The notes beneath the pieces are model-generated. The model was not told the DNA's origin. It did not search any database and saw only the letters and a list, made by a program, of their open reading frames with translations. Positions 17,893-53,710 of a DNA stretch of 64,000 nucleotides are shown here, piece after piece. Position 1 is the stretch's first letter; the number at the start of each line of letters is the position of its first letter. The position numbers and the translations under genes are program-made. The stretch is from a virus (lineage: Duplodnaviria > Heunggongvirae > Uroviricota > Caudoviricetes), in the IMG/VR virus record IMGVR_UViG_3300025735_000005. The stretch is one strand, 5' to 3'.

Positions 17893-17910
17893 GGGTTAAT
17901 TTAACGGGCT
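17893..17910 (-). promoter_or_regulatory. conserved motif GGGTTAATTTAACGGGCT (copy 1 of 4); candidate phage-RNAP promoter for scaffold/capsid operon
   Basis: Same 16-nt core as at 32428, 53644, 53692; lies in intergenic gap between RNAP gene stop (17916) and scaffold start (17784). Confidence 0.5.
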
Positions 17911-17915
17911 CGACT

Positions 17916-20900
17916 TTACCCTACACCGTACCAACCATAGTTATTTTCAAAGTCATACGGTACTTCTTCAAGCACTTGCTCTTGTGTTAGGATATCGTCT
18001 TCTGTAAGTACCTTACCACCAATCACAGACCTTCCTGCGACAGGCACTAGCCCTTTATCAATAGCGTCATTCAACAGCTGATCATAAATATCTTGAGGCA
18101 GACCTCTGTTTTTCATCTCATCCAGCGTCATAATGATAGGATTTTTATCCATAACCTTAGCGTAGATTTGGCGAAGAGCAGATCTGCCAGGAAGCATATC
18201 GGCAATATTAGTAAAGAAAGCGTCATGTACAGTGGAGGTAGCTACATTGTTAGCTTTACCCCAAAGATGAAACCGCTTAACAATGACAGCATCATTTGAA
18301 TGGTTTGCATTAACACCAAAAGCAGTGCCGGCTTTGATGGGATTAGCGATGTCATTGATAGTGCCCGACTTATTAAGTACTTGATCCCACCAGCTCGCTG
18401 CTGTCTTTTGTGGAATCATAAGGATATTAGTTTGCCAATTACCATCTTTATCTTTGTAAACTAAACGTTCTTCAAATGTTTGCGTGAAGGACTGATTGAT
18501 TACCTTTCCATCAAAGTTGACAGAGGGTACATAAGTCCAGCTCTTCGGCAAATCATTCATGTTGGTGTACAGTAGCGTGATTTCAGAAGCCTTTTCAACA
18601 TCCTTGAAACCAGTCACACCAAACTTTGAGGCGATATCTGCGATTGGTACGCCACCAACGCTAAGATCTAGCTTAAACAACTTTCGTCCTAGGGCACGTT
18701 CGCCTGGCTTTTCAACACCAAGGATTAGGTCTGCTAACCCACTTTCAGGCTTCCAATCAGTAAAGACCCGCTGCAGCAGTTCTGCTGTAACAGTGGTGTT
18801 TGGTGGAAGCCCTAAGTAACGCGCAAGCTCTTTACCGATAGGACCACGTCCTGGGCCTTTACGTTCACGCCCTGTCAGTGCGTATGAGGCAATTTTCTTC
18901 CAATTCAAACTGCTGTCTGATGGCTTGGCATTTGCTAGAAAGGCTTGAGCCATGCGTCTGAAGAAGGGACTAAACTCCTTTAGGATAGGCACTTGCTCAT
19001 TCAGATGGTCTGACATGATTCGGGCTACAGCTTCGAAGTCTTTAGGCGTCACGATTTCATCATACGCTTGAGACATCTTCTCTACTAGCTCGCGTGTTTT
19101 AGGCTCCAGGAACCAGAGTTCTGCCATGATTTCGTCGCCAGGTTGCTGACCTTTATTGAAGACATCTACAATATCCTTACGTAATTCGGCAAGCATGTCA
19201 GCGCCTTCTGGATCGTATCGAAGCAGACGTGCCCTCCTGGCATCAATCTCATTCAATACGGTCTGACGTTCTCCGGATGTAACCACAAGAGTATTATCAC
19301 GTTTACCGAGTACCTTACCAAGCTTTCCTTCTACATTCATGATGCCAGTTCTTTCACCAGCGCCGTAAAAGGTCACCATATTTTGGGCTTTAGCTGCTTT
19401 TTGCAGATCTTTAAGCTTCAACCCCAATCGTTCATTTAGGGTCTTAAAGCGAGGATCATTATAAGTAGCTGCAGCAATTTCGTCGTATAGACGTCGCTTT
19501 TGGCTAGTCGGAACCACGTTAGACAGTGACGCCAGTGCTCTGTTTCTAGTTGTAAGTGCAATAATCTGGGCACCCGACGATGATGCGTCCTGCTCCATAG
19601 CAAGGCCAGTCATTAGGTTATCTAGCGTTCCGCCACTTGTTACATGGTTCTCTATTTTAGCTGCTTCAATTGCAAAACGAAAGAACTTACCTAGCTCTTC
19701 ACCTTCAACTTCGGCAACAATATCGCTTTCTAGGATTGCCCTAATATCTGCAGGCCTAGCAGACAACATCTGTTTACCAATGTTTACAAGATCTGGCCAC
19801 CACTTCTCAGCGATGCGTTGCCTACCTCTGAACGTCAGACTATCATAATTACCCTCAAAGAAATCAGCTAGACCACCTAGAAAGCTTCCTATCTGATCTG
19901 TGAAGGCATCATACCCTGCTTTTCCCATTGGTTTTAGTGCAGCTGTGTTGAGGAAAGGGCGAAAGCTTTCACCACTCTGCGCTGAGATATAGCCACGATC
20001 GTAGACACGACCACGGTGGTCTACAAACGGCAGATTAGTGAACGTTTTACCGCGCAGCCATTGCATTGCTTTAAAACGTTCATAAGCATCGCCGCGAGAG
20101 GTAATATACTTACGATAATGATTAAGATCGTCATACTTCTTTGAATTACCTCTATCATCCTTAAAGTATAGAAGCTTTTCAATGAAGTTATGGAAATCTG
20201 AATCAACTGTGTACGCGGCTTTACCAGCCCAATTGAGGGCATCAGCCAAATCTTTATCTACAAAGTCACGAGTAACTTCTGAAGAAGTAATTGACTGGCG
20301 AGTGTTGTACCAGAGGCCGTTTCTTTTAGTGTAGTATGTGGTATAGCCAGGGCGAATCACCAGACCATTGTCAAAGGTGGCCGGAATACGCATACCAACT
20401 TCAATTTTACGCTCCAAAAGGCCATACTCGATTAGCCGAGGATCCAGCAGCCGGATGTAGTAAGAGACAGTATCATAGTACGGACCGAAGTATCTACCAG
20501 AGACGCTAGAACGCATTCTACGCTTTTGAACACCGAATGTATCAATGTCAAACAAATGTCCGGCCTTGCGCTCCAACAGCTTAACACCCAGCTCGTACCA
20601 ATCGCGACGATTGCCATTAAGATTTGCTGTATTATAAAGGCTTCTGCCTAGGTAAACAGCCAGAGCATCTCTATCGCTGCCCTCTCGAACCAATCTATGA
20701 GCAAACTGCTGATAAAATGATTGAAGCTGCGCATCAGATAGACGACGCTTGATCTTCAGTGGAATGCCGGGATCGAAGAAGCCTCGCAGCTCGTTTGCAA
20801 TTGTAGGAGCAACACGGTCTTCCCACTTGTTACGTGCAACAATATTATCAACTAGCCCTTTTTGGAGTTCATCAAGCTGAGTTCGACCTAGAACAGGGTC

Positions 20901-22571
20901 AATATACTCATCTTCCAGAAGCTTCTTAAGAACATCTTTATCACGGCGCAGCTGTGTTTCGATAGCATCCGAGATATTCATTACATCGAATTTCATCTGG
21001 CTATTTAAAACAGCTTTAAGGTTGCCCCAGGGCTGCCCATTCTGCCGAAAGCGGCCAATGACAATACGAAGGTTATCAGCAATAACAGAGCGCTCATTCA
21101 TACCCATCTTCATTGACAGGTCATCCATGACTTGCTTAATAAAAGCTTTATCTTGGTCTTTTAGAAGATCACTGTCATCCACACGGCGCAAGGCACCTGC
21201 GTAGACATCGCCGTTAGGCTGATAAATACGAACGTCATCGTATCTCTGTGTTAGAGGATTGAAGCGAAGCTGTTCTTCCTTTGGCGGTGTTGAAAGAACT
21301 CTATTGCGAGTCAATCGCTTATTACCAAGGTTGATACCACGGTAGGAAGTAAACGAAAGATTACCGTTGAGGTCACCTGCTTGAAGGAGGTAGTAATCTA
21401 CCAGCGTCTTGCGGATATCCTGCAGCTCCTCAGGTCTAGCAGCACCGAGTTGCATCGCGTCCAGACGTTGTTTTGCATCAGCAAATTTACGAGTATCACC
21501 AGGTACTACGTAATCGGCATCAGTAAGCTGTCGAAGCTCCTTAATACCAATATTATTACCCTTAGCATTAGTGAATTGGTCAACGGTCAATTCACCACTA
21601 TTCAACATCTCAACTTTCTTATACTCGCCAAGATGCCTCAATTGAACAGCTACGGGTTGCCTTTTGAGCCAGTCATTGTAGCTTTCCCGTAACGGCGTCT
21701 GACCATCGTAGAACTTTTTCTGTGCTTCTGTGAGCCCTTGTAGGTTTCTCCTACGGACTTCTGCGACGCTTTCCAGATTCGCGACATCTGACCAACTTTT
21801 GAAGACAGGTATGGAAGTAGAGCGACAATTCCAATGAGCTGGAGGAAGATGCTCCACATCACCGACCGGGTAGATTGTTCCATCACGATGGGCACACAAG
21901 GGAGTAGTACGGCTGTCCAAAACAGCAACGTATTGCCAACCTTGGATTGCTTTTTCGTTAGCTTTATAGACTTCATGATCAGCCTGATTATGGACAGACG
22001 TGATTGACGTTGTTACCAGCGTCTGTGATTGTTGCTTTGTAATGCTGTGAAGGTTGCCTTTACGAACAGCCAGAGCAATGTCTTGCATGCTATCACCATT
22101 AGCGATGCCACGGCGAATGATTTGCTCAATACGCTTGCGTTCATTTACAGAGACGCCCAACCAGCCTTGCTCTAGAGTCTTATCTGCGTAAAGAGGACGT
22201 TCAAGTACAACTTCTTCAGCCACACGTCTAGTCGGCCTCTGTGTGCGCCAAATCTTGCCCATCACGTTTTCTACGTTTTGATAAGCAAACGATACTTGGT
22301 CATTGAATAGATCTAAAAGCGAGCGACGCATGGTAGAATGGACTTCAGTAAAGGTATCCTGTAGCTCCTGATCTACAGCCTCTCTAAGACGTGCTAAGCC
22401 TTTGTCACTTTTCTCTGCGTCTACTACAAGCTTATCCAGACGAACAGCGTGGCCGTCAAGTACCAGTTCTACTTTACCCTGGACACGTCGTTCGTATAAG
22501 CGGATCATAGCCGCTCTATCAATAACCTTGTCATAAAGTTCAGTATTAGCATTGACGGCCTTCATTATCAT
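17916..22571 (-). CDS. fusion protein: N-terminal Mu F / SPP1 gp7-like head morphogenesis domain + C-terminal T7-like single-subunit DNA-dependent RNA polymerase (1551 aa)
   Basis: N-terminal region carries the Phage_Mu_F signature (WQYVAVLDSRTTPLCAHRDGTIYPVGDVEHLPPAHWNCRST). C-terminal region carries ssRNAP motifs: motif A AMEQDASSSGAQIIA (cf T7 DGSCSGIQHF, Asp537), motif B region MVTFYGAGERTG (cf MTLAYGSKEFG), motif C STVHDAFFTNIAD (cf HDSFGT, His811/Asp812). Confidence 0.85.
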   Translation of the reverse strand: MIMKAVNANTELYDKVIDRAAMIRLYERRVQGKVELVLDGHAVRLDKLVVDAEKSDKGLARLREAVDQELQDTFTEVHSTMRRSLLDLFNDQVSFAYQNVENVMGKIWRTQRPTRRVAEEVVLERPLYADKTLEQGWLGVSVNERKRIEQIIRRGIANGDSMQDIALAVRKGNLHSITKQQSQTLVTTSITSVHNQADHEVYKANEKAIQGWQYVAVLDSRTTPLCAHRDGTIYPVGDVEHLPPAHWNCRSTSIPVFKSWSDVANLESVAEVRRRNLQGLTEAQKKFYDGQTPLRESYNDWLKRQPVAVQLRHLGEYKKVEMLNSGELTVDQFTNAKGNNIGIKELRQLTDADYVVPGDTRKFADAKQRLDAMQLGAARPEELQDIRKTLVDYYLLQAGDLNGNLSFTSYRGINLGNKRLTRNRVLSTPPKEEQLRFNPLTQRYDDVRIYQPNGDVYAGALRRVDDSDLLKDQDKAFIKQVMDDLSMKMGMNERSVIADNLRIVIGRFRQNGQPWGNLKAVLNSQMKFDVMNISDAIETQLRRDKDVLKKLLEDEYIDPVLGRTQLDELQKGLVDNIVARNKWEDRVAPTIANELRGFFDPGIPLKIKRRLSDAQLQSFYQQFAHRLVREGSDRDALAVYLGRSLYNTANLNGNRRDWYELGVKLLERKAGHLFDIDTFGVQKRRMRSSVSGRYFGPYYDTVSYYIRLLDPRLIEYGLLERKIEVGMRIPATFDNGLVIRPGYTTYYTKRNGLWYNTRQSITSSEVTRDFVDKDLADALNWAGKAAYTVDSDFHNFIEKLLYFKDDRGNSKKYDDLNHYRKYITSRGDAYERFKAMQWLRGKTFTNLPFVDHRGRVYDRGYISAQSGESFRPFLNTAALKPMGKAGYDAFTDQIGSFLGGLADFFEGNYDSLTFRGRQRIAEKWWPDLVNIGKQMLSARPADIRAILESDIVAEVEGEELGKFFRFAIEAAKIENHVTSGGTLDNLMTGLAMEQDASSSGAQIIALTTRNRALASLSNVVPTSQKRRLYDEIAAATYNDPRFKTLNERLGLKLKDLQKAAKAQNMVTFYGAGERTGIMNVEGKLGKVLGKRDNTLVVTSGERQTVLNEIDARRARLLRYDPEGADMLAELRKDIVDVFNKGQQPGDEIMAELWFLEPKTRELVEKMSQAYDEIVTPKDFEAVARIMSDHLNEQVPILKEFSPFFRRMAQAFLANAKPSDSSLNWKKIASYALTGRERKGPGRGPIGKELARYLGLPPNTTVTAELLQRVFTDWKPESGLADLILGVEKPGERALGRKLFKLDLSVGGVPIADIASKFGVTGFKDVEKASEITLLYTNMNDLPKSWTYVPSVNFDGKVINQSFTQTFEERLVYKDKDGNWQTNILMIPQKTAASWWDQVLNKSGTINDIANPIKAGTAFGVNANHSNDAVIVKRFHLWGKANNVATSTVHDAFFTNIADMLPGRSALRQIYAKVMDKNPIIMTLDEMKNRGLPQDIYDQLLNDAIDKGLVPVAGRSVIGGKVLTEDDILTQEQVLEEVPYDFENNYGWYGVG

Positions 22572-29782: not shown

Positions 29783-30367
29783 ATTGTTCAGTAGATGGCG
29801 TTAACATCTACCCGACTATTGGAGAAGATATGTAGCAGCTTGTGCTAGATTATAGATACTGTCTTTAAAAGCCCCTAATCCTGTGTTGCAGTGTCCACAT
29901 AAAATACCACGGATGGTACCAGTTGTATGACAATGATCAACAACAGCAGCGTCGCCTGTATTATCCTGCCGACCTGCTCTAAAATGTACAGGATTACGAC
30001 ATATTGCGCAGCAACCGTCTTGCTGTTCTAAAATTGCATCGCGTTCATGAAGCTCTATCCCAAATTTACGGCGATAGTACCACTCAGCTTGCTTTTCCTT
30101 AGCGCATTGCTTGCAATAAGTCTGTCGGCCATCAGCACGTCTAGCGTGAGGGCCGAAATATTCGTAAGGCTTTTTAATTTTACAGTAAGTACAAATTTTC
30201 AATTTATATCTCCAAAGTCCGCTATATGTTACCATATAGATCAGACTATATCATCAGTTGCCTTTAGTGACTATTTCTCAAGTCCAGCACTGCCTGGCGC
30301 TTCCGTTACACTTGTAACGTACTCCCCTGCGGGATAGTCGTTGCACCTTCCTCTTACGAGGCTTGGC
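29783..30367 (-). mobile_element. intervening sequence splitting terminase large subunit (candidate group I intron carrying HNH ORF)
   Basis: Terminase ATPase ORF stops at 30368 and nuclease ORF resumes by 29800; the 585 nt between contain the HNH ORF flanked by hairpin-rich non-coding sequence (e.g. tcccgcagggga, cgttacaagtgtaacg). Confidence 0.45.
29816..30235 (-). CDS. HNH homing endonuclease
   Basis: 139 aa with CxxC...CxxC zinc knuckles and AVVDHCHTTGTIRGILCGHCN (HNH core). Confidence 0.8.
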   Translation of the reverse strand: MVTYSGLWRYKLKICTYCKIKKPYEYFGPHARRADGRQTYCKQCAKEKQAEWYYRRKFGIELHERDAILEQQDGCCAICRNPVHFRAGRQDNTGDAAVVDHCHTTGTIRGILCGHCNTGLGAFKDSIYNLAQAATYLLQ

Positions 30368-31288
30368 TCAGAGTTGTCCCATAAGGATATTCTCTGAATT
30401 CACCAGGTTTAGTATGTGGGCATACAGTTCACCCACGTTAAAGTCGATAGCTACATGCACATCCTCGTGTTCTCCCAGAGGCTCTAGCGTCTTGTTATGC
30501 TTAGCGCGTTCATAGGAGTAGAACACCATATTACCAGAGTCCATGAAGGACGCCATATATTCCGCAGCAAAGGCCCGTGGATCCATAGTACTCTTCAGCG
30601 CTACGATTTCTTCTGGGTCTAGAAAAGGAGAACCAGTATAGTCATAATGATAAGAGTTCCAGGTAGGGTCTTTCTCGTGGAAATGATGAAGCTCATGAAA
30701 GAAATCATAGCCATTAGGTGTAGAAGCAAAGACAGCACGACCAGGACTTCTAGCACCATAGCGACGTGCGTTTGCAGGAGACCAGCGGGTGCTGATGCAG
30801 GGTCGTACAATAGACTCCCAAGCAGCTTTTGCGCCAATACCCTTAGTGCAGGTGGTGACTTCGTCCCAGCCAACGAAATAATAGCCCTTACCGCGCATAC
30901 GCTGTACTGCTTCAAAAGACAGCAGGCGAAGTTCTACATTATTTGGGAGGACAAAGCGGCCTTCATCTTGGCTCGCCTTAATGGCAATTTCTTCCAGCCC
31001 CATATCCTGAGCCAGGATAGGGTAAAAGATGTCTGTAACCTGATCGTATGTCGGGGCAATAATACCTACACGTTTGTTAGGAACGTTTCTAGGTAACGCC
31101 ATAAGCTCATGCACTGCAGTTGCAGCACAGGCAGAGAGGAAGTATGATTTACCCCAGCCACGAGCACAGCATACAGACACAAAGCGGTGAGCTTGATCAA
31201 TAAAGAGATCTTCGTAAGCATCGCTCTGCCCGTAGTGGAGATCAATCACACCTGCAACTCCAAAGGGCAAGCTTCTTGGCCAGTACAA
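30368..31288 (-). CDS. terminase large subunit, N-terminal ATPase portion (first exon/fragment)
   Basis: 306 aa with Walker A CARGWGKS and Walker B YYFVGWDEV; ends with VAIDFNVGE resembling the first catalytic-Asp strand of the nuclease domain, then stops. Confidence 0.8.
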   Translation of the reverse strand: MYWPRSLPFGVAGVIDLHYGQSDAYEDLFIDQAHRFVSVCCARGWGKSYFLSACAATAVHELMALPRNVPNKRVGIIAPTYDQVTDIFYPILAQDMGLEEIAIKASQDEGRFVLPNNVELRLLSFEAVQRMRGKGYYFVGWDEVTTCTKGIGAKAAWESIVRPCISTRWSPANARRYGARSPGRAVFASTPNGYDFFHELHHFHEKDPTWNSYHYDYTGSPFLDPEEIVALKSTMDPRAFAAEYMASFMDSGNMVFYSYERAKHNKTLEPLGEHEDVHVAIDFNVGELYAHILNLVNSENILMGQL

Positions 31289-31540: not shown

Positions 31541-31836
31541 ACAGGGATCCTTGCCAGCGCAAGAGCCAGTGTGCGACAGGCGGATGGCGGAAGAGGAAGC
31601 TGCACAGTGATGCCTTCACCACGAACAGTAGCTGTAATAGCACCCTCATCATCTTCATTTACAGAGATATAGTCAGGGCATGATGTATTGGACATATCAG
31701 TCCAAGCTGCGAGATTCTTCATCAACAGTATTCCCATCAGTGTGATAAACTTCACCCTTTTTACGGGTGTTGATAATAAGCGGCGGAATAGAAGCCGTTT
31801 CCAGCACATTAGTTTCAGGTACACGACCATAGCCAT
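31537..31836 (-). CDS. hypothetical protein
   Basis: 99-aa ORF upstream of terminase. Confidence 0.3.
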   Translation of the reverse strand: MAMVVYLKLMCWKRLLFRRLLSTPVKRVKFITLMGILLMKNLAAWTDMSNTSCPDYISVNEDDEGAITATVRGEGITVQLPLPPSACRTLALALARIPV

Positions 31837-32143
31837 AACGCAACAGCTGTTCTGCGATCTTAATCTTTTGTTCAGTAAGCTTGATATAAAGCTCTGGCTT
31901 CCAGATGATCACACGACCAGTGTTGGGATTGAGTTCTACAGTAACACCATCACGAAGATCCTCTTCGCGCTTAATAGCGGCGGACAGTCGATGATGCTCA
32001 GTAACCAATTCACCAATGGGGTCATAACGAAGTTGTCTCAGTCGATCCTTAGAGCGCTCAGATCCTGCGTGGTAGCGACGTCCATCATAGAGTTCACCAT
32101 CACGAACAGGAGGCTGCTCAATGACTGCATTCTTAAGTGACAT
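31697..32143 (-). CDS. candidate terminase small subunit
   Basis: 148-aa ORF that is first gene after promoter motif/terminator junction and lies upstream of terminase large subunit; no diagnostic motif. Confidence 0.3.
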   Translation of the reverse strand: MSLKNAVIEQPPVRDGELYDGRRYHAGSERSKDRLRQLRYDPIGELVTEHHRLSAAIKREEDLRDGVTVELNPNTGRVIIWKPELYIKLTEQKIKIAEQLLRYGYGRVPETNVLETASIPPLIINTRKKGEVYHTDGNTVDEESRSLD

Positions 32144-32427
32144 TATTTCTCCTCTCGGACACTAAGGCAGCTGCAAAATATCAAGCTGTGCCTGTGTGAC
32201 CCATCATTAAGCTAACGGTTTCGTGATTATCCCTTTGCACACCTATCTTGTACGCTGCCAGAAAACGTTTGTAAATCAACGCTCTCGACGCCCGGCTAAA
32301 GGTACACAGGAGGAACACTCCTATAGGGGTAAGGGTATAGGGTATAATATAGGGTCTATCATCTATCATCCTCTACCCTTATACTCCCAATCTTGTTACC
32401 TAACGGTAACGGAGGACGTAAATATCA

Positions 32428-32444
32428 TTAATTTAACGGGTTGA
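32428..32444 (-). promoter_or_regulatory. conserved motif TTAATTTAACGGGTTGA (copy 2 of 4); candidate phage-RNAP promoter for packaging/late genes
   Basis: Shares 13-nt core with the three other copies; sits 30 nt downstream (in transcription direction) of a strong terminator. Confidence 0.45.
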
Positions 32445-32470
32445 GCCTCGGATTATTGCCTATAAAGCTT

Positions 32471-32553
32471 AAAAAAAAAATAAATAAGCCGCCCCTCAGG
32501 GAGCATTAACCCTACAGCCCTAAGGCCATAAGATCAATGCTCCCTGAGGGGCG
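32471..32553 (-). terminator. rho-independent terminator for leftward transcription (18-bp stem, then T10)
   Basis: Plus strand A10-TAAATAA followed by inverted repeat cgcccctcagggagcatt ... aatgctccctgaggggcg; on minus strand hairpin is followed by CTTATTTATTTTTTTTTT. Confidence 0.75.
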
Positions 32554-35222: not shown

Positions 35223-35672
35223 CTACAGATCATACACAACCGGCTGTATATGGGTGAATTCCTCTTCAATAATCTTTTCTACAACAGACCATTCGCCATT
35301 CGCTAAGCCACAACCGATACGTGGCAGTGCTATAGCTGCTGTAAAAGGAGCACATTGTTTATTAACAGTTTCACAGCAAAGCCGCAGTGCGGCGTAGCTA
35401 ATATAGCGACGTGTCCTATCTCTACCATACATGCGTTGTGTGATTGCATTGATGATCATCTTATCGCTGCCATGCGCAATAATAATCTGACCTAAATACA
35501 AACGACCACCCTGGTCATTATAGACCTTGTAATATCTTTGATAAGCTTCAGACCACCTGTCTCGTATAGCTTTCGCTACACCAGATTGCATTACACCTTG
35601 TGCGTTGCAACCATGCATGATATATGGCTCTTCGCAATCCAACAGATTGCCTTTCTTGTAGATAATCTTCAT
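35223..35672 (-). CDS. macro-domain protein (ADP-ribose binding / ADP-ribosyl hydrolase)
   Basis: 149 aa: KGNLLD...HGCNAQGVMQSGVAKAI and PRIGCGLANGEW match macro-domain signature blocks. Confidence 0.65.
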   Translation of the reverse strand: MKIIYKKGNLLDCEEPYIMHGCNAQGVMQSGVAKAIRDRWSEAYQRYYKVYNDQGGRLYLGQIIIAHGSDKMIINAITQRMYGRDRTRRYISYAALRLCCETVNKQCAPFTAAIALPRIGCGLANGEWSVVEKIIEEEFTHIQPVVYDL

Positions 35673-35741
35673 TAAGGTAATGCCCTTTACAAGCCTGACT
35701 TAACCGCACACGATTATTTATTGATAATCGCTTCTCTCCTG

Positions 35742-36197
35742 TCACCACCCCTTCCACCATTGATTGCCGGGAGTCTGCATATCTGCGTAGAAGTTTTGAA
35801 TAACAGATTCAGGAACTTTATGTTCTTCAGGCCGCTTTGAATTGCGCTCTAACAAAGTTTTAAGTGACAGATCAAACAGTTTGACGGTGGGTTGAATCCG
35901 CAGCTCATTATAAAAGGGTTCTACATTACGCCAATGAATGCCGGTATCACTCAGCAGAACTTCTTTGTACCAGTGGTAGCCGGCTCGAAGAGCTCCCAGC
36001 ATGGCTGGTGTAACCACACGAGATTTATTGCTGTAATGCAATGGGTGCTCTTGGTACGCTTGCCTTGATCCAAAGATGGCTTCTCTAAACTTGTCACGCT
36101 CCAGCCTAAGTACATAAGGCCTTGTTGCACAGTATTCATCTGCCCATGTGCTTTTACCAGAGCCTGGGCATCCAACTGTGACAATAAACTTATTCAT
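35742..36197 (-). CDS. polynucleotide 5'-kinase (T4 Pnk kinase-domain-like)
   Basis: 151 aa: TVGCPGSGKSTWA P-loop and LLERNSKR closely parallel T4 Pnk (TIGCPGSGKSTWA ... LVKRNSKRG). Confidence 0.75.
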   Translation of the reverse strand: MNKFIVTVGCPGSGKSTWADEYCATRPYVLRLERDKFREAIFGSRQAYQEHPLHYSNKSRVVTPAMLGALRAGYHWYKEVLLSDTGIHWRNVEPFYNELRIQPTVKLFDLSLKTLLERNSKRPEEHKVPESVIQNFYADMQTPGNQWWKGW

Positions 36198-36378
36198 CTG
36201 TCAAATACTCCTCAAGAAAACCATCTTCTATAAGCTTTGCAGTGAATGTCTCTCGTGTCCAGCCTTCTCCGTACATTTGCTCTCTAAATTTTTCACTGAA
36301 ATGATCTTTAATCATTTCATCAAGGATATCGTCATCTATAACAAGCGTCTGAACACCCATTATTGAGCTTCTCTCCAT
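36190..36378 (-). CDS. hypothetical small acidic protein
   Basis: 62-aa ORF. Confidence 0.3.
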   Translation of the reverse strand: MERSSIMGVQTLVIDDDILDEMIKDHFSEKFREQMYGEGWTRETFTAKLIEDGFLEEYLTDE

Positions 36379-36560
36379 GCTTTTTCACGACTAAAACGTG
36401 TGCTGCCAACTGAACCTTTACGCATACGCTTCTTTACAGCAATGCCGAAAACCTCTGGGTATTTGTCTCTACCACAAAGAACGCAGCAGAGTGCGTCACC
36501 CATACCGCCTCCGCCATCAAGGACACGCGCATGGATGCCCATAAAACACAAAATGTTCAT
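36360..36560 (-). CDS. hypothetical small protein
   Basis: 66-aa ORF. Confidence 0.25.
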   Translation of the reverse strand: MNILCFMGIHARVLDGGGGMGDALCCVLCGRDKYPEVFGIAVKKRMRKGSVGSTRFSREKAWREAQ

Positions 36561-36569
36561 ATTTTAATC

Positions 36570-37100
36570 CTATAGTAGACTTTTCAAATCGACAGTACCG
36601 CGATACTCTAGAGGGATCTGATCCCAGACCATACTGAACAGCGCTCGATTGCCACGTGTAAGCACAGCCATCAGTTGTACTTTTTCAGGAAAGTAAACCC
36701 TGCTGAAACCGGGGTCACGTCCGACGATCGTGCGCGTATTGCTGTAGAGGTCTGCTAGCTTGATGGTATGAACTTCATCTTGAGCAGCGCCCAGACGATC
36801 CCTTGACAAAGCTTTACGAGTTGCTCGGTTACCCTTCTCCATATCCGAAAGCGCCATAACATATGACGTCACAACAGGACCAAATACAACCCTAAGCTCA
36901 GCTTCAGTCACATTGCAATCTTCAACAACATCGTGGAGGAGAGCCGCCTGCTGCATTTCTACAGAGCCGCCGAAGTTGCGCACCAGCATCATCACTTCAA
37001 TAGGGTGCACAATATAGGGTTCGCCCGTGTACTTGCGCTCCTGATCAACGGCGCAATGCGCAGCAGTGGCGTAAACAAGAGCACGATTAACTTCATTCAT
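36570..37100 (-). CDS. HD-domain phosphohydrolase, SpoT/Mesh1-like (p)ppGpp-hydrolase family
   Basis: Track ORF 36570..37226 in a frame overlapping the upstream gene; likely start at internal ATG (MNEVNRALVYATAAH...). Motifs YIVHPIEVMMLV and AALLHDVVED match the HD signature of RelA/SpoT hydrolase domains. Confidence 0.6.
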   Translation of the reverse strand: MNEVNRALVYATAAHCAVDQERKYTGEPYIVHPIEVMMLVRNFGGSVEMQQAALLHDVVEDCNVTEAELRVVFGPVVTSYVMALSDMEKGNRATRKALSRDRLGAAQDEVHTIKLADLYSNTRTIVGRDPGFSRVYFPEKVQLMAVLTRGNRALFSMVWDQIPLEYRGTVDLKSLL

Positions 37101-37887
37101 AATTAGTTTCCTTACAATACGCCGAATTCGTCGTGGACTTGTTTGCCTTAGTGAGAAAGTACCGCTTAGCGATATCCGAAATAGGTTTACCCAAATCTTT
37201 ATGAGTAAACCCACTTGCGGCAACACGATCAGACTCTTCTTTCATAACGTCTGCAAACACCCAACGAAGGTAGTGTCCGATATTACGCAGCTCAAACGCA
37301 TGCTCTTGCAAGAATATCTGCAAACCCTGCTCAAGCCGATTTTCAGTAACGATCGCAGCGATCAAATCATCCTTGCGCGCAATAGCTTCTACGTCAACTT
37401 CAACAAGTTTACTTACCTTTGAGACGCTGTGCTTTTCGCCTTTTACCTTAAACCAGTATCTGCTATCTGAATACTCAGTATCGACGGGCTTCCATACAAT
37501 ACCTTCGCCAATTCCACTAACATCAGCTAGCTGTTTAGCGACAGGGCATTCCGCTTCTACAGCGGAGGTATATTCTACCAGCCTGTTTTGCACAAGTTCG
37601 GGCTGATTGAAATCAATTTCAACCATCCAATTTGGAAAATCATGAATACAATAAATATTATAATCACTAAATGCAATTAGACGTAGGTTCCTAATATCTA
37701 ACCATTCGTCGCCAGCGCGTACTGCAAACACCACAAAGTGTTTAGCGGAAAGATGGTTAATACCGACGCCTCTTTGAATGCCAGGTCCGCACCATTCGCC
37801 AAAAAGAGTGTATTGCTTAGACTTGCTGTATATACTATGCACCAAGTCGAATACTGCAGGTAGGACGCTGGTCTCTAGAGTACTCAT
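37093..37887 (-). CDS. RNA ligase (Rnl2-like), C-terminal portion as annotated; motif I lies upstream of the ATG
   Basis: Motif IV EGIVWKP and motif V WFKVKGEKH in the 264-aa ORF; the same frame continues upstream to 38097 and encodes motif I GTVKLHGTNAG (cf T4 Rnl2 EKIHGTNF) without any in-frame ATG/GTG/TTG. Confidence 0.55.
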   Translation of the reverse strand: MSTLETSVLPAVFDLVHSIYSKSKQYTLFGEWCGPGIQRGVGINHLSAKHFVVFAVRAGDEWLDIRNLRLIAFSDYNIYCIHDFPNWMVEIDFNQPELVQNRLVEYTSAVEAECPVAKQLADVSGIGEGIVWKPVDTEYSDSRYWFKVKGEKHSVSKVSKLVEVDVEAIARKDDLIAAIVTENRLEQGLQIFLQEHAFELRNIGHYLRWVFADVMKEESDRVAASGFTHKDLGKPISDIAKRYFLTKANKSTTNSAYCKETNYE

Positions 37888-38104
37888 ATACGCGCAAAAG
37901 CCAGCATTATCTTGCGATTGAGTAATAACTCGATTTCGCGAAAGGTAGGTGTATGTGGAGCCCTGATGAATACCGGCGTTTGTACCATGTAGCTTTACTG
38001 TCCCATTAAACCAAAGCTTTGGTACAGGTTGCTCTTTGAAAGTACAATGATCACGAATGGCCCTAACTACATGCCGGTATTGTTCAATAGATGGAACTTA
38101 TTCA

Positions 38105-38770
38105 TTACCAACCTTCCATGGGAAACTCGAGATAGACCTGCGTTTGCGCCCTAAGTTCATTTGTAATAGTTTTGACCCTATCAGTGTCGCGGCTGACACG
38201 ACCGAACCAACGCCAACCAGAACCAACAGCTTTTGTACCGCTATGAAATGTTTGCCAGTCAAATTCAATTAATTGGCGATCTGGAGCTTCCCATTGTGCT
38301 AGCTTGTTTTCCTCTAGCATCTGCTTAATGCGAGTATCCCAGTCACGATATATCAACCCATTGACTTTAGGCAATTCACATTCACCCAAGGCAAATGAAG
38401 TAGGAGCTAAATGCGCATTAACCAACCCCATAATATGCCTGCTGTGGTAGGCAGGTGTATCGTAATCAGGTTGACCAGCTGTGAGAAAATGCTGGCCTAC
38501 CGGAATAGGCGGGCGTGGAACGTCATCGTGGTGATACCCTGGAATCCCAGGATACCATCCAGACATAAGCATATGAACCCTGCTATCAAATACACACGGC
38601 ACTGATAGCCAATCTTGAGGCATAGATGAGATAAAAGAGCGCGTAATAGGACCGCCCTTTTCATACGCAAATTCAAGATCTGAATTGAAGAACATAGGTT
38701 CATTCTTCACATCATCACAATATTTTGCAAAAGAATTAAGTAGATATGCACGACTGTTGAAGCTGTACAT
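38105..38770 (-). CDS. hypothetical protein (weak HxD...H 2OG-oxygenase-like pattern)
   Basis: 221 aa; YHHDD...H spacing reminiscent of Fe/2OG oxygenases but not diagnostic. Confidence 0.25.
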   Translation of the reverse strand: MYSFNSRAYLLNSFAKYCDDVKNEPMFFNSDLEFAYEKGGPITRSFISSMPQDWLSVPCVFDSRVHMLMSGWYPGIPGYHHDDVPRPPIPVGQHFLTAGQPDYDTPAYHSRHIMGLVNAHLAPTSFALGECELPKVNGLIYRDWDTRIKQMLEENKLAQWEAPDRQLIEFDWQTFHSGTKAVGSGWRWFGRVSRDTDRVKTITNELRAQTQVYLEFPMEGW

Positions 38771-39131
38771 CTATATTCTCCGTGAAATTTATACCCACTC
38801 TGTTTTTAAATAAACTTGCAATACTTTGCTGTTTTGCTAAGTATAAATCGTATAAACTTAATTCACTCTTAATGTACGATTTCGGAAGATTAAATATAAC
38901 CTGCCGATATCTTACTTTAATATCAACAGCCTCAAATATACTGACTACAAAGGAGTCATCATAAAGATTTTCTAGTATTTTGATAGGAAATACATAAAAG
39001 AGATCTTCTAATGACGCAAATCCGCAGAATTCTGCATCGTAATCAATGATACCTAAATCAGGTGAAATCAAATCGCCAGGATAGGTCACCCCATGAGATC
39101 TGGAAAGGTTTTGCAAGATTACGTGGCCCAT
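38736..39131 (-). CDS. hypothetical protein
   Basis: 131-aa ORF. Confidence 0.3.
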   Translation of the reverse strand: MGHVILQNLSRSHGVTYPGDLISPDLGIIDYDAEFCGFASLEDLFYVFPIKILENLYDDSFVVSIFEAVDIKVRYRQVIFNLPKSYIKSELSLYDLYLAKQQSIASLFKNRVGINFTENIDVQLQQSCIST

Positions 39132-39197
39132 ATCACGTCCTCGTCAGGGGCCACGATCTGCATGTCCTTTAAGATGTATTCTATATACCTCGGACAT

Positions 39198-40559
39198 TTA
39201 GAAATCCTTTGCACGATTGCGGACTTCATCGAAAGTATGCTTAACAAGCAGTTCGCCATCTCGCCACACAGGCTGCATGAGATCAACAGCATGATGCGAG
39301 AGATGATCAGTGCGAATAGCACGATATTGACCGTCGTATTCGATAACAGATTGGCGGCCAGCCTTGCTTGCCTTTTGGATGCTGCCAGTAGGCGTCTTCT
39401 GAACATCCCGCCAGCCATCGCCGTAATTAACAGCATTCATCTTCATGGCAAAGCTGAGTGTATCGCGATCGACTTTCTGAAGAAGACCACCGCCCATGCC
39501 AAATACGATATTATCCAGCGAGAAGCCGGCATGAATGATATTGCGGATAAGTTCCTCAATAGAATCCTCATTCATACCATCGCCTTGAATAACACGTACG
39601 TGCGAGTCCAGAACACGGTATCCCTTACTGTTTACAGTACCACCAAAAGCTTCCCACAACTTGTGCATGATATCGATCGATACCGTCGTAGGGTTGCCGC
39701 TATCAGGCCGAACAACAAGAGTGCCATTGCGTTCAAGAATCTCTTCCTTGAGACTATAGCACCAAGCCTTACGTACGGCACGTTCCAGGTCATAGCTATC
39801 CGAAACGATCGATACAAGACCATCAGGAAAACTCTTGAGAATGTGATGATACGCATTGTATTCGCGTTCACGTCCCCAGCTAGTAATAGTGCTGTGCTCG
39901 GCCGCAGGGATATTGAAGCCGGGCATACCAGCCTTGTAATAGTGCTGCGCATGGAGAATGCCAGCGAGGGTATCCGTGCTGCTGAAATTTAGCAAATGCG
40001 CCATGCCACCCAGAGCAGCGCTTTCCCGGCTGCTGGCACCACGAGCACCCATATCGTGCAGTTTGAATTCGATCTGGCCGTCAGGGTCATCACTGCTGAT
40101 CAACAGACCGCGATAAATGATCTTACGGCATTTTGCCGACAGCGTAGCAACCGTAGAAGGATACCATGTTGTGCGCGTCAAATCCGTGTCGATGAAGTTA
40201 GGCAGCCACGGGAAGCGTGGATCTGTGTTGACAACCTCAAATAGCGGTGTACCACAAGGAACTGCAATCCCTTCAGGCAAGGCGCGGATTTCCAGTGGTA
40301 GATAGCCCAGATTTTCCAGATCACGAAAGCCCTTATCATTAAAAGGGATGCCGTGGGCCGCGAGCACATCTGCGCATTCTTCGATCATATCAAGGTCTGG
40401 CGCATCCATACTGTCCATCAACGTAGGTTGCAGACCAAAGAAGATCATGCGATGGCTGAAATTGTTGATGCGTGCCTCGCCGTAGACAGAAGCGTACTTC
40501 ATTTCCGGCGGATACTGCATAAAGTGCGAGTGCTTATAGCTATCAACATCAAAAATCAT
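39198..40559 (-). CDS. nadV: nicotinamide phosphoribosyltransferase (NAMPT/NadV)
   Basis: Start taken at internal ATG (MIFDVDSYKHSHFMQYPP, cf human NAMPT ATDSYKVTHYKQYPP); FGMGGGLLQKVDRDT matches NAMPT GSGGGLLQK block; length ~453 aa. Confidence 0.8.
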   Translation of the reverse strand: MIFDVDSYKHSHFMQYPPEMKYASVYGEARINNFSHRMIFFGLQPTLMDSMDAPDLDMIEECADVLAAHGIPFNDKGFRDLENLGYLPLEIRALPEGIAVPCGTPLFEVVNTDPRFPWLPNFIDTDLTRTTWYPSTVATLSAKCRKIIYRGLLISSDDPDGQIEFKLHDMGARGASSRESAALGGMAHLLNFSSTDTLAGILHAQHYYKAGMPGFNIPAAEHSTITSWGREREYNAYHHILKSFPDGLVSIVSDSYDLERAVRKAWCYSLKEEILERNGTLVVRPDSGNPTTVSIDIMHKLWEAFGGTVNSKGYRVLDSHVRVIQGDGMNEDSIEELIRNIIHAGFSLDNIVFGMGGGLLQKVDRDTLSFAMKMNAVNYGDGWRDVQKTPTGSIQKASKAGRQSVIEYDGQYRAIRTDHLSHHAVDLMQPVWRDGELLVKHTFDEVRNRAKDF

Positions 40560-40560
40560 T

Positions 40561-41544
40561 TCAAAACCCCTTGTAAAAAGCCATGTGGTAGTGGTCTTCA
40601 AAGTATTGTGTTGGATGAACTGCGTGCTCATGCATCCAGCCAGCCCAGGATGCATCATCCTTACCCTGAGGCGCTGGCATGTCTACGTTGTCAGGAATTT
40701 CTATGTAAGCGGCATGAGTGATGATACGCCCTCGCAAGCTGCGTTCAGGATCATCAAAGATATGCCAACCAACAATGTATTGCGGATCGATGAGAAGTCC
40801 TGTCTCTTCCTCGACTTCTCTAAGCATACCTCTTTCGATACGCTCGTCAGGTTCAAGAAATCCTCCTGGCGCTGCATATAGGTTTTTACCTACAGCACCG
40901 CCGCGCTTGATAAGAAGTCTTTTGTCACGCCAGCGGATAATACCATCAACTGTGACAAAAGGACCAGTCCCATATTTAAGGCGATCCTTATCTACACCTT
41001 CCTTATAAGACAAGAGCTCCTTGAATGTATCCGTCATCTTGAAATGCTCAAGGAACGTCAAGGTATTTGGTGTGATGTAGGGAGCAGGGATATGAGGCAG
41101 ACGCCGAAGGTACACCTCACGAACATCGCTGGCGGAAAAGGTGCCGTAACTACTGCTAATCTGAATGCTTTCCCACGATGGAAACATATTCAGATAGTAG
41201 CTGGATTTGTCTTTGCCGTAGCCGGTCAGATAGATTATATCTTCAGGCTTGGAGCAAGAGCTGATGAGATTTTCAACGTTTTGCAGCCAATCCGCGTCGC
41301 TGTACGGGTAGTCATCAAGCGGAAGAACCTCCAACCGACCCAGTGCGTGCTCATAAGCAAAGGCGTTACTGATCAGCGATCGACGTTCTTCATATGTGAA
41401 AGGGTTCTTCGGATCTCGGGCTTTATTTGCAGAGCCAACAAGCACAATCAGCCTATCAACCTTTGAAAGAGCTTCCGAAATGACATGCGCGTGACCGATA
41501 TGCATCGGCTGAAAGCGCCCGATAAAAACGCCTATTTTGCTCAT
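40561..41544 (-). CDS. natV: bifunctional NMN adenylyltransferase / Nudix ADP-ribose pyrophosphatase (NatV/NadM-Nudix)
   Basis: N-terminal GRFQPMHIGH ((H/T)xGH nucleotidyltransferase motif); C-terminal Nudix box GGFLEPDERIERGMLREVEEETG. Confidence 0.8.
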   Translation of the reverse strand: MSKIGVFIGRFQPMHIGHAHVISEALSKVDRLIVLVGSANKARDPKNPFTYEERRSLISNAFAYEHALGRLEVLPLDDYPYSDADWLQNVENLISSCSKPEDIIYLTGYGKDKSSYYLNMFPSWESIQISSSYGTFSASDVREVYLRRLPHIPAPYITPNTLTFLEHFKMTDTFKELLSYKEGVDKDRLKYGTGPFVTVDGIIRWRDKRLLIKRGGAVGKNLYAAPGGFLEPDERIERGMLREVEEETGLLIDPQYIVGWHIFDDPERSLRGRIITHAAYIEIPDNVDMPAPQGKDDASWAGWMHEHAVHPTQYFEDHYHMAFYKGF

Positions 41545-48831: not shown

Positions 48832-49104
48832 TTATGCGTTTCCTTCGATAGTTTCGAGGGTTCTCTTAGAAATTGCTACCGGAACACATACCATAGCAAC
48901 CTCGCCTGCAGCAAGATCAACTGACAATGCCTCTGCAGATGCAGAAGCTCGATCGCCATGCAGCATAGACTGCCTCACCTCGCCAGCCGCATTGACAACA
49001 ACAGCAAGTACAGCAGTATGAATAGGACGAGCAGACATTTCAGAGTTCTCCTCTTTAGATAGAACAGCTTTACGGAATTCAGAATCGCCACGTAGAATAC
49101 GCAT
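48832..49104 (-). CDS. hypothetical small protein
   Basis: 90-aa ORF. Confidence 0.3.
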   Translation of the reverse strand: MRILRGDSEFRKAVLSKEENSEMSARPIHTAVLAVVVNAAGEVRQSMLHGDRASASAEALSVDLAAGEVAMVCVPVAISKRTLETIEGNA

Positions 49105-49145
49105 TGTAGGGTTCTCCTTTCATATAAGATACCCGAGATTGCGCA

Positions 49146-49445
49146 TTACAAAGCATTAGCCCAGGTGTAAGCCTGAATAGCCGATATAAGTCCAACTTTA
49201 AAACCCCTGTACTCTCCATTTTCGAAGAGTACAAGGGTGGGAGCTGCGCGAATATCTACTGCTTTTGCAACATCAGGATATTTCTCGATATCTACACTTG
49301 CTGTCGGTATGCCCTCTAGATTTTCTAATCGCATAAGCATTTCAACAGAAGGAAGCGCCCATTCAACCCAGAAAAGTACTAGAAGTTTACCTGTACATTC
49401 AAGCACATCTTTATTGAAATTTTCTGATGTTATCTCATTAGGCAT
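49146..49445 (-). CDS. thioredoxin-fold protein lacking the CGPC active site (redox-inactive thioredoxin homolog)
   Basis: Aligns along its length with E. coli TrxA (FNKDVLE..GKLLVLFWVEWALPSVEMLM vs [29 protein letters not shown]; ...APTLVLFENGE vs IPTLLLFKNGE) but CGPC is replaced by ALPS. Confidence 0.6.
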   Translation of the reverse strand: MPNEITSENFNKDVLECTGKLLVLFWVEWALPSVEMLMRLENLEGIPTASVDIEKYPDVAKAVDIRAAPTLVLFENGEYRGFKVGLISAIQAYTWANAL

Positions 49446-50083: not shown

Positions 50084-50122
50084 TTCACCCTCCCAGATCG
50101 ATTGTAAATAGCATGAATCACA

Positions 50123-50660: not shown

Positions 50661-50713
50661 GTGTTTCCAATCAATTTAAAAGGAGCAGGCCCGAAGGCCC
50701 ACTCCAGTGGTGA

Positions 50714-51694: not shown

Positions 51695-51806
51695 CTTGAC
51701 AATATGCTGGTCGTGCTGGTAGCCGGCCCTGGCAAATGATGTAGAAAGAATATATTCACGTGTGTACGCCCTGCTTGAATCTCGCTTAGAGTGTACTCGG
51801 GTGTCA

Positions 51807-52007: not shown

Positions 52008-52010
52008 AGA

Positions 52011-52691: not shown

Positions 52692-52818
52692 TACGAGCTC
52701 GTACTAGGATTTGAATTTCAGTACTGTAGAAGTAATTATCACCAGTATCGGCACCCAGCTTTTTACGAGCAGCCACAATCTTATCAGATATCTCTTGCAG
52801 TTCTTCAATAGCTGCCAT
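52546..52818 (-). CDS. hypothetical small protein
   Basis: 90-aa ORF first after terminator (overlaps next ORF in another frame). Confidence 0.3.
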   Translation of the reverse strand: MAAIEELQEISDKIVAARKKLGADTGDNYFYSTEIQILVRARNAILAENPSVRLAFVHPTPEDLPPPLKRSVETIKEMVKANNARLSIVY

Positions 52819-52827
52819 ACTCTATCT

Positions 52828-52858
52828 TTCACAAAATAAAACCTCCCCGAAGGGAGGT
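52828..52858 (-). terminator. rho-independent terminator (leftward): 7-bp stem ACCTCCC/CGAA/GGGAGGT followed by TTTTATTTTGTG
   Basis: Read directly: plus strand acaaaataaaacctccccgaagggaggt; sits just downstream of the 201-aa gene. Confidence 0.7.
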
Positions 52859-52986
52859 AACTGCATCAGGGCATGAATTTGGGGACCGGACAGACCTCGG
52901 CTTTCATCATTTAAGAGTTGTTAGCTACAACAACACCCCTGTTACAGTAGACAGTTTATTGACTTGTCTAGGTCTCACAAAGCCTC

Positions 52987-53592
52987 TTAGGCTTCGGCGC
53001 TCTCTGCTGCAGCAGCCTCACGGGCAGCCTTTTCAGCGGCCTGCTTAGCGCGGTATTCAGCTAGAGCATTGGTAGCATTCGGCGACACAGGGCGCGTGGG
53101 CTTCGCAGCCTTGTACGCTTCCGTAATCGCTTCACGGTTTTCGACGATATAAGCAGCGAGCTTTTCGTTCTCGCTCGCTTCCGTCAGAACGCGAACCATT
53201 TCAGCAGCCTTCGCAGCGTCGTCCATACGCTTCACAGCCGGCCAGCGGAAGCCTTCAAAGGCAACCACAAGGTTTTCAGCCATAAAAGGCATAGCCTTGG
53301 CAAAAGCCTTACCTTCAGGAGTTTCCAGGAATGCGGGAGCGGCTTCCACATCCTTTTCGATCTTCTTCAGTTCCGACTTGGTAACACGCTTGATGGTACC
53401 GACTTCGAAGGCACCTTCAACGGCTTCTTGGTTTTCCACAAGCCAATCGATAAGACGGTCAGCCTGTTCGCCCGTACCAACAGTGGCACGAAGGGCGTCT
53501 ACGATCTTGGGACGACGGACAAAGGCTTCAGCTTCAGCCTTGGTGTCGAAAAAGCGATCGCCAACCTTGAAAACCTGGGTGAGTTCGGTCAT
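52987..53592 (-). CDS. highly expressed Ala/Glu/Lys-rich 201-aa protein of unknown function (monocistronic unit)
   Basis: GC-rich codon usage like capsid/tail-tube genes; two internal similar segments (VENQEAVEGAFE / VENREAITEAYK); preceded by twin promoter motifs and followed by a terminator. Confidence 0.55.
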   Translation of the reverse strand: MTELTQVFKVGDRFFDTKAEAEAFVRRPKIVDALRATVGTGEQADRLIDWLVENQEAVEGAFEVGTIKRVTKSELKKIEKDVEAAPAFLETPEGKAFAKAMPFMAENLVVAFEGFRWPAVKRMDDAAKAAEMVRVLTEASENEKLAAYIVENREAITEAYKAAKPTRPVSPNATNALAEYRAKQAAEKAAREAAAAESAEA

Positions 53593-53643
53593 GTATAATT
53601 CCTTCTGTATAATGGCGTTCTGAAAAGGCTGAGTGCCCTTTCA

Positions 53644-53663
53644 GGGTTAATTTAACGGGTTGA
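53644..53663 (-). promoter_or_regulatory. conserved motif GGGTTAATTTAACGGGTTGA (copy 3 of 4)
   Basis: 52 nt upstream of the 201-aa gene ATG; flanked by CCCTTTCA. Confidence 0.5.
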
Positions 53664-53691
53664 TTATGCCCGGTCAACCGTCCCTTTTCAA

Positions 53692-53710
53692 GGGTTAATT
53701 TAACGGGTTA
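53692..53710 (-). promoter_or_regulatory. conserved motif GGGTTAATTTAACGGGTTA (copy 4 of 4), tandem with copy 3 (48 bp apart)
   Basis: Same core and same CCCTTTTCAA flank as copy 3. Confidence 0.5.

Follow-up and report, generated by a model that had tools for sequence, protein, structure and literature searches.

A conserved intergenic motif as candidate promoter of a T7-like RNA polymerase in a siphovirus-like phage with two phage RNA polymerases

The IMG/VR virus record IMGVR_UViG_3300025735_000005 (Caudoviricetes) provides a stretch of 64 000 nucleotides, here called the window, in which a 16-nt motif with the gene-strand core CCCGTTAAATTAACCC recurs in gaps between genes. We find that this motif is probably the promoter of a T7-like single-subunit RNA polymerase (RNAP) encoded by the same genome, where it would serve the middle and late genes. 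An earlier reading of the window, made from the letters without database searches (the sequence-only reading), had proposed the motif as a promoter family for the phage's own single-subunit RNAP. The family is supported by the comparative evidence given below, while the polymerase that uses it is likelier to be the T7-like enzyme, whose gene lies beyond the window, than the fusion of a MuF head protein with an RNAP (MuF-RNAP) that the window itself encodes.

A directional intergenic motif in the phage and its relatives

A search of the 64-kb window returned three exact copies of the core and one variant that agrees at 13 of the 16 positions. On the plus strand the exact copies read GGGTTAATTTAACGGG and are located at 17893-17908, 53644-53659 and 53692-53707. 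The fourth copy, at 32425-32440, has three mismatches and reads TCATTAATTTAACGGG on the plus strand and CCCGTTAAATTAATGA on the gene strand, with 13 bases, ATTAATTTAACGG(G), in common with the exact copies. The chance expectation is 0.27 matches, and none of 100 dinucleotide-preserving shuffles gave four, which bears out the earlier description of a motif repeated in four intergenic positions, two of them in tandem, at coordinates that were right to a few bases. Weaker copies do not rise above background, as the window has 10 matches with five or fewer mismatches against a shuffle mean of 14; the motif family in the window is all-or-none, without degenerate copies. All four copies are found in non-coding gaps, although called open reading frames (ORFs) cover about 91% of the window, and all are on the minus (gene) strand, which carries nearly all of the window genes.

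Copy A (AGCCCGTTAAATTAACCC, 17893..17910, minus strand) begins 7 nt past the TAA stop codon of the 1551-aa MuF-RNAP gene, and the 3′ end of its core (17908->17893) is 108 nt ahead of the scaffold ATG at 17784. Most close relatives likewise have a motif copy about 10 nt past the MuF-RNAP stop. Copy B (AACCCGTTAAATTAATGA, 32425..32442, minus), a ‘TGA-ending’ variant, heads the packaging and structural gene block. Directly upstream of it, an intrinsic-terminator-like hairpin with a T-run (32470..32505, minus; stem 32505->32490, then GCTTATTTATTTTTTTTTT) closes the block of middle genes along 32505->32470, in agreement with the terminator noticed in the sequence-only reading. Copies C and D (each AACCCGTTAAATTAACCC then T, minus; 53644..53661 and 53692..53709) are the downstream and upstream members of a tandem pair that is spaced 48 nt and located upstream of a 201-aa gene, with the 3′ end of copy C 51 nt ahead of the ATG at 53592.

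The complete genome has a size of about 79 kb. We fetched its flanks as two further sequences, L195 and L196, using two window proteins; both are identical to the window in the overlaps, and position x of L195 corresponds to window position 72848-x. A pattern search of the window and the recovered flanks, of the kind suggested as a check in the sequence-only reading, found at least seven copies in the 76 kb recovered. The fifth copy (L195:5106, ACCCGTTAACTTAACCC) is directly past the T7-like RNAP gene and one small ORF, and is followed by genes for a gp2.5-like single-stranded DNA-binding protein (SSB), a family A DNA polymerase, an exonuclease and a primase-helicase. After the RNAP, this long-tailed phage has the gene order of an early and replication module like that of T7; the acidic tail of the gp2.5-like SSB ends in F. 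The sixth copy (L196:15354, ACCCGTTAAATTAATGA) is of the TGA type and is located past the tail genes, beyond the window start. Downstream of this copy (L196:15370-15416) and of copy B (32424-32340, minus), about 45 nt of sequence are common to both (GGGAGTATAAGGGTAGAGGATGAT...).

Relatives of the phage are plentiful among uncultured phages (121 IMG/VR stretches with 403 protein clusters). INPHARED nucleotide searches found no close relative among deposited phages and only a weak match to EBPR siphovirus 1; the nearest deposited genomes are this metagenomic phage, at 52% identity, and two Naomviridae roseophages, DSS3_VP1 and DSS3_PM1, at 32%. In IMG/VR, at least 119 stretches have an exact match to the motif. 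The exact 16-mer is present in 80 related loci, on the gene strand in every case, and its commonest site is about 10 nt past the MuF-RNAP stop. Alignment of 97 non-redundant copies delimits a conserved block, A-[A/C]-CCCGTTAAATTAACCC-[T/A], of 18-19 bp with sharp edges, directly outside which the information content is at background on both sides. In one subclass (about 25 of 98 copies in relatives), G(G/C)nCCCCC comes about 8 nt past the block and is itself followed by an A+T-rich TATATTATAA-like stretch.

An equal frequency of the motif inside coding regions on either strand, named in the sequence-only reading as evidence that would speak against a promoter, is not what we observe. Among 154 distinct copies with a CCC or TGA ending, the gene strand carries 140 and the opposite strand 2, with 12 ambiguous, and just five are inside a same-strand ORF of at least 120 aa (gene calls in the related loci being made by a simple longest-ORF heuristic), despite the dense coding of these genomes. 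Loci with exact copies span 32-67% G+C and belong to phages whose adjacent proteins are only 47-69% identical. Invariance across such a range of base composition argues for a conserved phage-encoded reader and not for a host factor, and the comparison as a whole suggests that the motif acts as a directional signal in the DNA and is read by a conserved protein of the phage.

Several positions of the motif recur. A scaffold homolog is the downstream gene for 49 copies in relatives, at least seven related loci have a copy upstream of homologs of the 201-aa gene, and further copies are found ahead of the T7 gp2.5-like SSB gene and where the packaging block begins, past a terminator with a T-run. 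The latter arrangement of terminator, then motif, is seen at L014:2002, L020:842, L055:1747, in EBPR siphovirus 1 (L194:413) and in L225. As exact-match loci are biased to the consensus, variants were analyzed in loci that had been fetched through their proteins. EBPR siphovirus 1 has the variant GACCGTTAnnTTAACCCAAAT at both conserved positions, locus L013 has CCCGTTAGCTTAACCC twice with the same GC change, and the TGA ending is the form of every fetched copy on two related contigs. The variants are thereby lineage-wide, common to the copies within one genome. Among the fetched genomes, the first copy after the T7-like RNAP gene is off consensus in five of eight, and the copies before the scaffold gene are perfect.

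The core of the motif is a perfect 5+1+5 palindrome, GTTAA-A-TTAAC, and this 11-bp element could be the site of a phage DNA-binding regulator, which would activate or repress transcription or would join the host RNAP as a small sigma-like late factor. Sites in tandem ahead of a gene are a typical feature of operators, the window encodes many small phage proteins with no assigned function, and a sigma-70-like TTGAAA-17-CATAAT (10/12 matching; 53691-53663, minus) is present between the tandem copies. The flanks, however, are asymmetric (A-M-CCC ... CCC-W), where a symmetrical site needs GGG ... CCC, and the orientation is essentially fixed at 140 to 2. There is no -10/-35 pair conserved at a fixed distance downstream, sigma-70-like sites are absent at two of the three locations (17.9 kb and 32.4 kb), and Pfam or PHROG scans of 50 window proteins found no sigma or helix-turn-helix family. 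The constancy of the motif over hosts of 32-67% G+C also argues against dependence on a host holoenzyme, and we regard a regulator site as improbable. A sigma-70 promoter as such was rejected: no pair of -35 and -10 hexamers spaced 16-18 bp is present at 17.9 or 32.4 kb, and the site between the tandem copies is outside the conserved block.

A function in RNA, whether in processing or cleavage, in protein binding within a 5′ leader or in making a phage RNAP pause or terminate, would agree with the strand specificity of the motif, its place within transcribed intergenic spacers and the position of some copies directly past a stop codon. About 20% of copies also have a GGG further downstream with which the 3′ CCC can pair. 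We found no stable structure, with DNA folding z-scores of -0.8 to +1.0 and the palindrome unpaired in the minimum-free-energy structure, and the motif has no Rfam match. Several copies are just past intrinsic terminators, where little read-through RNA is expected, and both the tandem duplication and the absence from the early region suit promoters better. A role at the RNA level is accordingly the reading to which we give the least credence, as hardly probable. A 5′-terminal CCC...GGG hairpin was rejected as a general feature, being possible only for the subset of 20 out of 98 copies that bear a GGG. For the same 98 non-redundant copies, the initiating GGG of the sequence-only reading does not hold up, as a GGG occurs within 3-13 nt in 20 of them and at variable spacing.

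The virion-RNAP promoters of coliphage N4 are hairpins with a 5-7 bp stem and a 3-nt loop, extruded on the template strand. The palindrome GTTAA-A-TTAAC forms no hairpin, being unpaired in folds of either strand with energies no better than those of shuffled sequence, which excludes a promoter of the N4 type.

Two phage polymerases and two motif families

The genome carries an intact gene for a T7-like RNAP of about 745 aa (L195:1526-4473), which occupies the stretch from about 3.4 to 6.3 kb past position 64000 of the window. A group I intron (Rfam RF00028, L195:3016-3249) with an HNH ORF (3266-3742) interrupts it, and the two pieces of the gene, L195:1526-3070 and 3781-4473, carry PF00940. 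An unsplit ortholog matches Pfam PF00940 with E = 5.6e-64 and T7 RNAP with 8e-44 in phmmer; it has motifs A, B and C (DGSNNGSQH, KRNVMTLPYGG and IHDSFG), a specificity loop and the C-terminal YCFS foot. The motif has a clear position relative to this gene: none of 57 loci has a copy in the 2 kb upstream of it, while in 43 of the 57 the first copy is found 0.34-3.7 kb past its stop codon. The same holds for all eight loci of a smaller comparison.

The early region, upstream of the T7-like RNAP gene, has a different motif of comparable conservation, ...TGCGGAAAAA..GGTATCTTATATGA, with the family consensus ...TGCGGAAAAAnnGGTATCTTATATGA(A/T). All 93 exact copies of the early core ATCTTATATGA in the 57 loci are 0.9-7 kb upstream of the T7-like RNAP gene, and within 8 kb on either side of the gene in these loci we found none downstream of it and none on the other strand. 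The phage studied here has copies at L195:284 and L195:454, and the sole early-type copy in the window (tgcgcaatctcgggtATCTTATATGA, 49120..49146, minus) lies downstream of the T7-like RNAP gene at a distance of about 19 kb, its end 15 nt short of the start codon (ATG) of a 90-aa gene (48832-49104). The -10-like part of the early-type motif is without the A2/T6 signature of sigma-70 promoters. We regard the early-type motif as a candidate promoter for a polymerase that is present at infection, most plausibly an ejected MuF-RNAP and otherwise the host RNAP.

The MuF-RNAP gene (17916..22571, minus) encodes a 1551-aa protein in which an SPP1 gp7-like MuF minor head protein (PF04233) is fused to a single-subunit RNAP (PF00940). 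Since single-sequence and profile searches of the RNAP domain against the PDB gave weak hits only, to T7 RNAP and N4 RNAPII, the domain was classed with AlphaFold2 and Foldseek. The model of residues 381-1551 has a mean predicted local distance difference test score of 72 and matches mitochondrial and T7 RNAPs over the whole length of these enzymes (E = 5e-17), and 25 homologs show no variation in the catalytic motifs DASSSGAQ and HDAFF. The fusion is probably a virion-packaged polymerase, and a MuF and virion RNAP pairing of this type is without description in the searchable literature. Many orthologs (loci L032, L045, L079 and L163; proteins P0018, P0062, P0072 and P0077) are longer through in-frame insertions at residue ~980 or ~1090, with 1626-1801 aa compared to ~1545 aa; these insertions may be inteins. 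In EBPR siphovirus 1, an HNH gene splits the MuF-RNAP gene (gp47-gp49). The RNAP domain is unannotated in the records of this phage and of the DSS3 phages.

The MuF-RNAP could itself be the reader of the main motif, carried in the capsid and entering the cell with the ejected DNA; it might be the only reader or share the motif with the T7-like enzyme. It is a complete single-subunit RNAP with intact catalytic motifs, one motif copy is directly past its gene, and the copy found at the head of the early region in many relatives would be usable by an enzyme entering together with the DNA. In principle, two enzymes could be marked by the CCC and TGA endings, but these follow lineages and not gene classes. 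A virion enzyme is expected at the earliest genes, yet the early region of 1-7 kb has the other motif (93 of 93 copies upstream) and the main motif is absent in the 2 kb before the T7-like RNAP gene. Use of the motif by the MuF-RNAP would also leave the T7-like RNAP without a promoter family for the middle and late genes. We therefore consider the MuF-RNAP an unlikely reader of the motif, and favor the T7-like enzyme because the motif is missing upstream of its gene and starts past it, with a different motif in the early region.

As the promoter of the T7-like RNAP, the motif would work as follows. The enzyme would be made from the early region and would bind the 18-19 bp duplex A-[A/C]-CCCGTTAAATTAACCC-[T/A] in one orientation, melt the TTAA stretch, which is A+T-rich and close to the element's 3′ edge, and start RNA at or just past that edge, reading leftward along the minus strand. 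The replication genes would be the first unit, transcribed from the copy that comes shortly after the RNAP gene, beyond the window. The tandem pair at 53.7 kb would drive a second unit, comprising the 201-aa gene with the middle genes and ending at the 32.5-kb terminator. A third, starting at 32.44 kb, would hold the block for packaging, portal and MuF-RNAP, and a fourth would be formed by the scaffold, capsid and tail genes, with a boost from 17.9 kb. Such a scheme would account for the gene order, the junction of terminator and motif at 32.5 kb and the booster ahead of the scaffold and capsid genes, as well as for the tandem pair, the off-consensus first copy and the perfect late copies.

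Several points weigh against this explanation. There is no conserved sequence downstream of the block, so the motif has no fixed initiation region like the T7 +1 GGGAGA, and a start at the 3′ end of the block would give a transcript that opens with C or A, where G is usual. Nor does the block give a base-for-base alignment with the promoters of T7, T3 or SP6. In many relatives, the early region opens with one copy, placed 65-180 nt ahead of the first early-type motif, and this copy could also suit a polymerase that acts first; its position can be likened to that of the T7 phage promoter phiOL, which reportedly lies upstream of the early host promoters (A1). The assignment to the T7-like and not the MuF-fused RNAP follows from gene-order logic only, and promoter function is deduced by comparing sequences. 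Finally, the motif census covers 76 kb of the ~79-kb genome. For the last ~3 kb, the plus-strand ORF 405-683 gave no record and an exact 51-mer had no match in JGI metagenome contigs.

Comparison with known phage transcription systems

Promoters of the T7, T3 and SP6 type are 17-23 bp elements, divided into class II and class III, that are used by the single-subunit RNAPs of the Autographiviridae. In T7, class II promoters are weaker and class III promoters have the consensus sequence. The motif resembles such promoters in being a contiguous element of ~18 bp with several near-identical, co-oriented intergenic copies per genome, in its absence ahead of the RNAP gene and first appearance shortly after it, and in the copies ahead of SSB, scaffold and capsid genes, some of them in tandem. 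Off-consensus copies before DNA-metabolism genes and consensus copies before structural genes are a further likeness, as is an RNAP with a specificity loop, and the lineage-wide variants of the motif may be another. In contrast, the motif has neither a conserved initiation region nor a +1 G, and there are about 7 copies in 76 kb here compared with 17 in the 40 kb of T7. The setting differs too, being a long-tailed, siphovirus-like phage of ~79 kb with a second RNAP fused to a capsid protein.

The sequence of the motif is unrelated to those of T7-type promoters, save for a 10-base coincidence with the start of the T3 promoter, AATTAACCCTCACTAAAGGGAGA. The sequence-only reading had drawn on this resemblance, which we could not sustain: AATTAACCCT stands at the 3′ edge of the block, and the 8-13 bases that would complete a T3-type promoter are unconserved. 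A full 23-bp match including CACTAAAG and the +1 GGGAGA fails, with only AATTAACCC(T) in common at the block's 3′ edge, and homology to the T3 promoter was rejected because conservation stops at that edge.

DSS3_VP1, a cultured phage that is syntenic with the window phage, has about 14 same-strand copies of a repeat of its own, ATAGG[GT][TG][GA]CGTTAAAG(A/C)GGGGG, which resembles the ...CACTAAAGGGAGA of T3. Its early region has one weak match to the repeat (6 mismatches), and the first good copy is 1.3 kb past the RNAP gene; related early-type sequences, GAAAACTAAGGCATCTATAATGA and GGCATCTATAATGA, are found in the early region. Like the window phage, DSS3_VP1 has both RNAPs (T7-like, 34% identical; MuF-RNAP, 32% identical), a repeat copy after a terminator ahead of the terminase gene, and tandem copies. 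The heptamer CGTTAAA is common to the repeat and the window motif, whereas the flanks differ, those of the repeat having a clear T3-like TAAAG and a purine-rich start, and DSS3_VP1 is without a copy between the MuF-RNAP and scaffold genes. The specificity loop of the T7-like RNAP differs between DSS3_VP1, where it is shorter, and the group of the window phage; since both RNAPs diverge in parallel, co-variation with the motif is not assignable to one enzyme. Two reports on the Naomviridae (PMC8323127, PMC12697855) make no mention of the DSS3_VP1 repeat family, of the RNAPs or of promoters.

In coliphage N4, a virion RNAP acts at hairpin early promoters, followed by RNAPII for the middle genes (PMC5512222). 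The window phage is similar in having two phage RNAPs of the single-subunit type, one of them predicted to be in the virion, and two motif families that are apart along the genome. Unlike in N4, the window motif is not a hairpin, the putative virion enzyme is fused to a MuF head protein instead of having the gp50 architecture, and its fold matches T7 and mitochondrial RNAPs, with N4 vRNAP outside the top 50 Foldseek hits. The late genes also differ, carrying a phage motif here and being transcribed by the host RNAP in N4. A second parallel is Thermus phage P23-45, in which a virion RNAP fused to the tape measure protein is reported to transcribe pre-early genes, among them that of a second, non-virion polymerase which then takes over (PMC10770324). 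Both are long-tailed phages with a second RNAP besides one fused to a structural protein; the P23-45 enzymes are homologous to cellular multisubunit RNAPs, whereas those here are of T7 type, and the fusion partner here is a head protein and not the tape measure.

Other window genes and the meaning of the motif

Portal, scaffold, major capsid and large terminase genes are recognizable in the window, which also has primase-helicase, ribonucleotide reductase, ligase and NAD-salvage genes. Downstream of copy A, the scaffold gene (17098..17784, minus; phrog_206) is followed by the major capsid gene (15892-17079; phrog_247, major head protein). The 201-aa gene (52987..53592, minus) is the first downstream of the tandem pair; its product is predicted from the translation to be alanine-rich and helical, and has no Pfam or PHROG match. 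The first sizeable gene downstream of copy B encodes 148 aa (31697..32143, minus) and precedes the intron-split large terminase gene, and its homolog in L225 also comes after a terminator and a motif variant. The terminase gene is interrupted by a group I intron (RF00028, 87.5 bits; 30222-30450, minus) with an endonuclease VII/HNH ORF (29816-30235, minus), and the same interruption is annotated in DSS3_VP1.

A 3292-aa ORF (2813-12691, minus) encodes a tape measure protein and not an N4-type virion polymerase: its first 300-480 residues match tape-measure families, the remainder carries no annotation, and Pfam and PHROG scans show no RNAP domain. Its length implies an unusually long tail. A tRNA-Trp (CCA) gene (13951-14024, minus) is found within the tail-gene region. 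At 35223-41544 (minus), a NAD-salvage cluster (NAMPT; NMN adenylyltransferase/NUDIX) that is syntenic with DSS3_VP1 also holds genes for RNA repair (RNA ligase, polynucleotide kinase, phosphatase and HD phosphohydrolase). DSS3_VP1 has deoxyuridine-containing DNA (dU-DNA); of the corresponding genes, we found a generic HD_4 phosphohydrolase only, with no dCTP deaminase and no yfbR-type dTMP phosphatase, and because no deaminase was found this base substitution is not established for the window phage.

The 5′ leader of the scaffold gene has two hairpins with an invariant Y-G-U triloop, ACAGT-TGT-ACTGT and TGAGC-TGT-GCTCA (17833-17821 and 17809-17797, minus), the proximal one ending 12 nt ahead of the ATG. 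Such hairpins are present in 57 of 58 distinct leaders of relatives, compared with 10% in shuffled controls, with 26 different compensating stems; the form in DSS3_VP1 is GTAAGT-TGT-ACTTAC. They match no Rfam family and are likely an RNA operator or translational control element.

A phage single-subunit RNAP promoter is a textbook kind of element, while the consensus found here and the group of phages with two polymerases are undescribed; neither motif sequence appears in a relevant context in the searchable literature. Of greater interest as a lead is the occurrence, in siphovirus-like phages, of two RNAPs together with two motif families, which we infer from sequence. We tentatively propose, at somewhat less than even confidence, a cascade in which the head-packaged MuF-RNAP is ejected with the DNA and reads the early region from TGCGGAAAAA..GGTATCTTATATGA, including the intron-interrupted T7-like RNAP gene, after which the T7-like RNAP uses A-M-CCCGTTAAATTAACCC-W to make middle and late products that include the virion polymerase. 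Such a two-polymerase cascade is undescribed for siphoviruses. If true, it would allow phage transcription without need of the host RNAP, and would be common to a large uncultured group (32-67% G+C) and to the cultured dU-DNA Naomviridae. Short orthogonal pairs of RNAP and promoter are also useful in expression systems. The motif would define a transcription map for a widespread and almost unstudied phage group, whose only cultured relatives are the dU-DNA roseophages of the Naomviridae, and together with the early-type motif and the two polymerases it offers a testable model of host-independent transcription in siphoviruses.

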